Shown in pieces: positions 594 through 868 of a stretch of DNA of 1,621 nt (the first letter of the stretch is position 1; every line of letters starts with the position of its first letter). The DNA comes from Escherichia phage ECO95 1-6-1, in sequence record OR845787.1; one strand, given 5' to 3'. The translations under genes and the position numbers were made by a program. Under the pieces are notes generated by a model that worked only from the letters and a program-made list of their open reading frames with translations, had not been told where the DNA came from and did no database searches.

Positions 594-868
594 AAAAATT
601 TCTCGTTTCCATCGCGTTTTATTTTCAAAAAAATCACCGTGCGTAAAAATTTGAGGGGGCGGGCGGTGCCTGGCGCCTTGAGGTTTGTCCTGAAAACCTC
701 CCCCACCCCGTCCATGCGGCCTGTCAGCGATTGCGGAAGCATTCCCGCAACTCCCGGTCACGCTCGGTCATACGCTGCGCAGGCTGGCGCTCATTGCATC
801 TGCTTCGCCCCCGCATGAAGCCATCACGGCAGCGCATCAACGATCGGTACAGATTCACCACGTCTTTC
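594..868. other. 275-bp non-coding region between HNH and terS; candidate cos (cohesive-end packaging) region
   Basis: No convincing ORF in any frame; ORFs 551..742(-) and 731..1009(+) are out of context and low-complexity. Contains a G-rich tract (653-666), a 7-bp-stem hairpin (680-700), a C-rich tract (697-710), an A/T-rich tract (594-650) and short inverted and direct repeats (731-770). In HK97-like phages the cos site lies between the HNH gene and terS. The functional assignment is by position only. Confidence 0.4.
680..700. repeat. Perfect 7-bp inverted repeat (GAGGTTT / AAACCTC) around a 7-nt loop
   Basis: Read directly from the sequence: 680-686 gaggttt, loop 687-693 gtcctga, 694-700 aaacctc. 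Flanked by G-rich sequence on the left (ttgagggggcgggcgg, 651-666) and C-rich sequence on the right (cctcccccaccccg, 697-710). Not followed by a T/U run on either strand. Confidence 0.7.

Follow-up and report, generated by a model that had tools for sequence, protein, structure and literature searches.

What is the function of the DNA that separates the HNH endonuclease gene from terS in this element, and, should it be a packaging site, where would the terminase cut it? The window, i.e. the whole stretch of DNA analyzed, comprises 1,621 nt of Escherichia phage ECO95 1-6-1 (OR845787.1), and all coordinates below refer to this full stretch. Its genes all reside on the minus strand, in the order connector, HNH, a 50-aa gene, a 130-bp gap, terS and terL, and neighboring genes overlap, in agreement with the otherwise overlapping operon described in a first-pass annotation:

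1312-1611, minus strand: head-tail connector gene, upstream in the same operon (Pfam Phage_connect_1, E=2.1e-7; RefSeq annotation in a 97.5%-identical relative)
869-1312, minus strand: HNH endonuclease gene (Pfam HNH, 22 bits; phrog_144, E=2.8e-42; RefSeq annotation)
724-876, minus strand: 50-aa arginine-rich gene of unknown function (phrog_3173, E=4.5e-24; annotated CDS in RefSeq relatives and in LR881103)
237-593, minus strand: terS, P27-family small terminase of 118 aa (Terminase_4, E=3e-25; phrog_83, E=3e-41; alignment with phage TerS)
1-253, minus strand: 5' part of terL, the large terminase, overlapping the end of terS (RefSeq annotation of a relative)

The HNH start was taken from RefSeq, the mechanical open reading frame reaching a GTG at 1345, and the Pfam score of this protein is barely over the cut-off; phrog_144, which it also matches, is an HNH endonuclease family. 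The region at 594-868 had initially been regarded as the only sizeable non-coding stretch. Indeed, 594-723 is the window's only sizeable gap, but 724-876 is a gene, and since it encodes a conserved 50-aa protein, the true intergenic gap is limited to the 130 bp at 594-723. The gene overlaps the HNH stop by 8 nt, its 50-codon frame is kept in 38 of the 38 loci where it was located, and across these loci the variable columns by codon position amount to 22/17/40, a third-position excess. The protein, which reads MNEKDVVNLYRSL...ECFRNR, is found between HNH and cos in enterobacterial satellites; the gene is absent from the Pasteurella relatives, and Psymv2 has a different ORF, of 74 aa, at the equivalent position. 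The composition of the remaining gap fits the earlier description of a GC-rich, partly symmetric sequence beside an A/T-rich tract: the G+C content is 0.65 at 651-750 versus 0.38 at 551-650, and a G-run at 709-697 and a C-run at 665-655 are imperfectly complementary. Repeats within 580-900 were limited to short, chance-level ones.

The identity of the host element sets the frame for interpreting the gap. A 13.9-kb IMG/VR contig (2724679271_000004, hereafter L115) contains the window at 100% identity, and on this contig, beside the host gene fis, DUF3892, TerL, TerS, the gap, the 50-aa gene, HNH, a connector, a head-completion protein and a portal are encoded, and further on an S78 protease, the major capsid protein, a DUF927 replication protein and an antirepressor. 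Its full-length terL ORF matches TerL_ATPase and TerL_nuclease, and the contig ends before any integrase, a gene present in relatives. No tail or lysis genes were detected among the scanned ORFs of at least 90 aa in L115, nor in the island of E. coli S163-2. L115 thus displays the gene layout of the capsid-forming PICIs (cf-PICIs), and, judged from its genes, the element is one of these satellites. Such elements encode capsids and terminase of their own and take only tails from a helper phage, and packaging has been reported to be mutually exclusive with that of the helper. For EcCIEDL933 and KpCIDSM30104, induction by helper phage and transfer with helper tails have been reported, and both resemble the window element in their order of capsid, protease, portal, connectors, hnh, terS and terL, their size of about 14-16 kb and the lack of observed tail or lysis genes. 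KpCIDSM30104 has further been reported to package DNA with cohesive ends, and cf-PICIs to form concatemers via cohesive ends.

In complete E. coli genomes, copies with 97.5% identity are located between fis and yhdJ, within an island disrupted by IS1; in S163-2 (L002 18988-20233), IS1A and a truncated gene are located where the regulation and replication modules are expected, and these copies may be immobile remnants, no longer mobilised. A more distant relative, vB_KppS-Ant (LR881103.1), shares 85% DNA identity with the window over 687-1604 and 95% identity in TerS. In the accompanying paper, LR881103.1 is presented as a filamentous ssDNA prophage; its gene content is in fact that of a cf-PICI. 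A 765-aa gene following terL bears the label 'tail length tape measure protein' in the record.

We then compared the gap to cos sites that are annotated or mapped. Megablast and blastn searches of the gap against the phage collection returned satellites only, and homology to phage cos became visible only once junctions had been fetched via a TerS protein search. The TerS of the window matches Terminase_4 (PF05119; 88.9 bits versus a cut-off of 24.7), the same family that is matched by TerS of phiP27 and SfV. A tblastn search with TerS retrieved phages carrying a P27-family TerS, and several of their records begin just upstream of terS. The end-to-start junctions of these phages aligned to the window without gaps. 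The Stx2e phage phiP27 (NC_003356), the namesake of the TerS family, carries a 10-nt cos-site, a GenBank feature, between its HNH gene L34 and terS L35, and this 10-mer, CGCCCGCCCC, is identical to window positions 665-656. Moreover, the phiP27 flanks, ACCGCCCGCCCCnTCAAATTTTTAC, match the window at 24 of 25 positions. The two diverge from about +14 relative to the cut, where phiP27 reads CCCGCGAAATTAAAAATTT and the window CACGGTGATTTTTTTGAAAATAA. Further differences include the TerS proteins, as that of phiP27 has 156 aa with a basic N-terminal arm and that of the window 118 aa without it (33% identity in the TerS search), and the additional 50-aa gene that the window has between HNH and cos; phiP27 is also a complete phage, unlike the tail-less satellite studied here.

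Experimentally mapped ends fall at the same place. Run-off sequencing of SfI virion DNA revealed a 10-nt gap, TGCCCGCCCC (PMC3636060), and SfII, SfIV and SfV have the same cos site as SfI, while phi644-2 and phiE125 possess 10-base 3' extensions, 5'-CGCCCGCTTC-3' (PMC2920897). The extension mapped for phi644-2 corresponds exactly to the last ten bases of its record, and the 10-mers of phiP27, SfI and phi644-2/phiE125 all occupy the alignment column of the window 10-mer. A blastn alignment of the gap to the phi644-2 junction spans 33 nt at 82% identity and straddles the physical end. SfI, SfII, SfIV and SfV, as well as phi644-2, phiE125 and phi1026b, display the same order as the window, namely a G-block, a spacer, AC plus the 10-mer and an A/T-block, in combination with a P27-family TerS; an HNH gene is annotated upstream in phi644-2, whereas the upstream orf53 of SfV is annotated as 'unknown'. 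The 10-mers of these Sf and Burkholderia phages differ from that of the window by one to three bases, the TerS identity is about 35-40%, and they have in common a downstream block, CCCGCGAAAAATGAAATTTAA, that the window lacks. The occurrence of CGCCCGCTTC in a coliphage paper was also considered as cos support and dismissed, the sequence there representing att sites.

The gap had originally been placed in an HK97-type setting, in which the HNH protein is known to assist terminase cleavage. The latter holds: HK97 exhibits a 10-nt 3' overhang, its TerS binds +15 to +29 and reads G21 and the adjacent A-tract, and its HNH protein gp74 stimulates cos cleavage (PMC11331095). The HK97 junction also parallels the window in having a G-run, a 31-nt spacing, GAC followed by the 10-mer (CGCCGCCAAA at the record end) and GATTTTTTT at +22 to +30, and the G at +21 (635) and the T7 run at +23 to +29 (633-627) in the window are within one base of the positions read by HK97 TerS. 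The HK97 10-mer, on the other hand, differs from that of the window at 4 of 10 positions. As a candidate homologue of the window TerS, HK97 TerS (gp1) was rejected, with a BLASTP E-value of 2.5 and no Terminase_4 match. By TerS sequence the nearest family is the P27 type, and the setting is better specified as such; HK97, with a TerS that shows no detectable relationship, is an architectural and mechanistic analogue, the likeness being restricted to DNA architecture and mechanism.

A side observation concerns the junctions of phiP27, SfV and HK97, where TCAAATC follows the G-rich block and TCAAAT or a related sequence is found one base after the C-rich 10-mer, forming a direct-repeat-like pair about 44 nt apart, of which the window has the second copy only. 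Lambda cos (cosQ-cosN-cosB) follows a comparable tripartite logic, its nicking site being flanked by an upstream element and, downstream, by a region bound by TerS, and packaging proceeds toward the terminase genes; its overhangs are 12-nt 5' extensions, its TerS is of Nu1 type and there is no HNH partner. Lambda cos is not known to share sequence similarity with the window. The papers on lambda cosQ are cited in PMC11331095.

Alignment of the gap with related elements, a check proposed at the outset, did recover conserved blocks (711-687 and 667-619). The conservation set consists of 74 distinct sequences retrieved by TerS protein similarity, and hence has no bias toward the gap DNA itself. 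Across it, window positions 745-594 are almost invariant except for a patch at 672-683, while the adjacent 50-aa gene varies far more; within the gap, the part nearest terS is the least conserved. The segments that stand out are ACGGGGTGGGGGAGGTTTTCAGGAC (711-687), then a variable spacer, and then AC plus CGCCCGCCCC plus CTCAAATTTTTACGCACGGTGATTTTTTTGAAAATAA (667-619), leading to the following layout:

687-711, minus strand: upstream conserved block ACGGGGTGGGGGAGGTTTTCAGGAC, containing the G-run and near-invariant in the 74 sequences; may represent a second, cosQ-like terminase/HNH contact, by analogy
666-686, minus strand: spacer with a variable patch at about 672-683; its last two bases are the conserved AC (667-666)
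656-665, minus strand: predicted cohesive-end 10-mer CGCCCGCCCC (plus strand GGGGCGGGCG), from its identity with the annotated phiP27 cos-site
619-655, minus strand: A/T-rich downstream conserved block CTCAAATTTTTACGCACGGTGATTTTTTTGAAAATAA, near-invariant and kept from E. coli to Pasteurella satellites; likely candidate for a cosB-like TerS-binding site, by analogy
594-618, minus strand: terS leader with the ribosome-binding region, variable between relatives, with indels

The gap between HNH and terS very probably holds the cos site of a cf-PICI, spanning approximately 619-711. The original proposal of a cos packaging site within 594-868 is accordingly upheld as to its nature, through homology to annotated and mapped sites and through the contig termini of a close relative described below, and narrowed as to its extent; its placement between HNH (1312-869) and terS (593-237) also stands, with one small gene (876-724) intervening. 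The G-rich block precedes the 10-mer at a spacing of 31 nt in phiP27, SfV and HK97 as in the window, the range for phi644-2, Psymv2 and Pmp8 being 29-32 nt, and the first part of the 655-619 block is common to phiP27 and phi644-2. A pattern derived from the mapped cos sites, YGCCCGCCCC, occurs once in the window, at 656-665, versus 0.03 expected, and was matched in 5 of 200 shuffles.

The core of the gap is recognizable also in the Pasteurella elements Pmp7 and Pmp8, whose TerS is only 66% identical. These are recorded as Pasteurella 'phages' of 10-15 kb (OR544138 and OR544139, respectively), with the same cos core as the enterobacterial elements and the 10-mer CGCCCCCCCA; their content of integrase, primase, capsid module, HNH, terS and terL is satellite-like. 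Among relatives the 10-mer is polymorphic, as over 117 distinct contexts position 2 is G in 60 and A in 57, position 3 is C in 104 and A in 12, and position 5 is C in 86 and T in 30. Thus, strict identity with the phiP27 10-mer is not required. The AC and the C that flank the 10-mer are constant within this set, which was however filtered on AC, and many loci were fetched by exact flank matches, so the constancy of the flanks is partly built in; in the unfiltered material, AC directly precedes the 10-mer in 118 of 125 contexts. This pattern suggests that the cut is positioned by the flanks rather than by the sequence of the overhang.

Physical ends in relatives of the window element shed further light on the position of the cut. 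Scanning of viral contigs for the downstream block identified an IMG/VR contig of satellite unit length (3300022664_000095, 15,518 bp) that starts with CTCAAATTTTTACGC, equivalent to window position 655, and ends with ...GGTTTTCAGGACAAAACCCAAGCCGCAAGGCAC (...GGCAC), equivalent to 666. Because its ends correspond to 655 and 666, the contig lacks exactly the 10-mer, the same signature by which SfI cos was defined. The missing 10 nt may represent 3' overhangs that were trimmed in end-polishing, depending on how the library of the contig was prepared. This was the only contig found with exact termini at the site: of 80 IMG/VR loci fetched by TerS, none ended in the gap, most appearing integrated, and a metagenome scan with the downstream block gave 26 matches, all internal, and no further termini.

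Two additional records break nearby, both imprecisely. The linear assembly of vB_KppS-Ant ends at the equivalents of 615 and 687, so that 616-686 is missing and the 10-mer is bracketed; judged from an E. coli relative, 69 bp are absent between the ends. Ant was sequenced from lysate with Nextera XT and is >99% identical to a region of the genome of K. pneumoniae DSM 30104, the strain behind the name of the cf-PICI KpCIDSM30104. A tagmentation library that loses sequence beside real ends near 655/666 would explain the break. An end of Klebsiella phage P12620-1 (PQ569648) at window position 731 was rejected as a terminus, as the record is chimeric, leaving a loose bracket of 591-730 only. In this record (PQ569648.1, a 106.5-kb 'complete genome'), approximately the last 15.9 kb are a cf-PICI, with an abrupt switch to unrelated phage DNA at the start codon of terS; a phage and a satellite packaged alongside it seem to have been assembled into one chimeric sequence.

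Could the conservation instead reflect expression of the terminase genes? The gap immediately precedes terS and contains the ribosome-binding region of this gene, and the G-run and C-run could pair in RNA, such a stem being present in the minimum-free-energy fold. On this view, the stretch would chiefly control transcription or translation of terS-terL, as a promoter, a terminator/attenuator or a structured leader RNA. However, no sigma-70-like promoter and no intrinsic-terminator-like site was detected on either strand, the RNA fold has a z-score of +0.43 with 131 of 200 shuffles folding at least as well, and it is 594-618, nearest terS, that is conserved the least. The conserved blocks are moreover colinear with annotated and mapped cos sites, and the ends of the contig of a relative are located exactly there. 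We consider a primarily regulatory function improbable, although a regulatory role could coexist alongside cos. An overlapping coding sequence is an alternative source of constraint, as mechanical ORFs traverse the gap at 237-761 (minus strand, a TerS extended from GTG 761), 551-742 (minus strand, 63 aa) and 639-818 (plus strand, 59 aa). Yet 42 of 80 relatives have stops that interrupt the terS frame upstream of its start, in 15 of them two codons before the ATG, and relatives differ by indels within the gap. Extending TerS does not improve the Pfam match, neither the 63-aa nor the 59-aa ORF gave a Pfam hit, and the terS start in RefSeq is the ATG at 593, rendering this explanation scarcely credible.

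A different objection concerns the mode of packaging. TerS recognition sites of pac phages are also found in or near terS, and the available termini derive from relatives rather than from this exact element; the gap might therefore be a pac site of a headful system, or a TerS recognition site without a fixed cut. Against this, TerS, HNH and the DNA motifs are homologous to those of phages with defined 10-nt cohesive ends, a related unit-length contig has defined ends and is devoid of exactly the 10-mer, and cf-PICI DNA has been reported to form concatemers through cohesive ends. Headful packaging hence appears very improbable.

Taken together, approximately 619-711 is highly likely to be the cos site of a cf-PICI, with homology to the cos sites of phages in which a P27-family TerS is accompanied by an HNH endonuclease, and we propose that it is cleaved as follows. 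On concatemeric satellite DNA, TerS would bind the A/T-rich block at 655-619, just downstream of the cut, by analogy with HK97. Assisted by HNH, TerL would then nick on either side of CGCCCGCCCC, between 656 and 655 on the minus strand and between 665 and 666 on the plus strand, and the staggered nicks would generate 10-nt 3' cohesive ends. Packaging would run from 655 through terS and terL and round the element, ending at the next cos, while the G-rich block at 711-687, 31 nt upstream, may help to position the complex. The proposed 3' polarity of the overhang follows phi644-2 and HK97, the assignment of proteins to blocks follows HK97, with a TerS that is not detectably homologous, and a requirement for HNH in cleavage would parallel gp74 of HK97. 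In the cf-PICI literature covered, no base-level mapping of cos was found, and the coordinates given here are a prediction.

PhiP27, the Sf phages, the Burkholderia phages and HK97 already provide known examples of this type of site. The satellites deviate from these in a specific manner. From about +14, satellites share GG(TG/CA)ATTTTTT(T/A)GAAAATAA, whereas phages share CCGCGAAA...AAATTT. In parallel, all phage P27-family TerS proteins aligned (151-164 aa) carry a conserved, basic N-terminal arm, about 35-40 aa long and with the consensus GRGRKPKPTARKxLAGNPGKRALNKxEPxF, which is lacking in the satellite TerS proteins (118-122 aa). Loss of the TerS arm correlates with the different DNA block downstream of the cut. 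The comparison suggests that satellites kept the phage nick site and changed the recognition module, a change that could underlie their exclusive packaging. A more speculative extension, possible but on balance doubtful, is that the nick site and cohesive end were kept, identical to phiP27, and that the replacement of CCCGCGAAAAATGAAATTTAA by the downstream block GGTGATTTTTTTGAAAATAA and the loss of the TerS arm jointly form the sequence-level basis of the exclusive packaging of cf-PICI and helper, and that the G-block 31 nt upstream is a general, so far undescribed third element of cos sites of the HK97/P27 type.

On a practical level, complete satellite genomes in viromes would become easier to recognize, as linear contigs should start with CTCAAATTTTT and end with GGCAC, and the predicted cos helps to correct mislabelled records and to design cos-carrying vectors and packaging assays. 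For this family of phage satellites, which is widespread and moves between species, the analysis predicts the cut site to the base, in a form open to testing. Furthermore, the shared nick site, set against the divergent TerS-binding flank and the shortened TerS, offers a hypothesis for how the packaging of satellite and helper may be separated.
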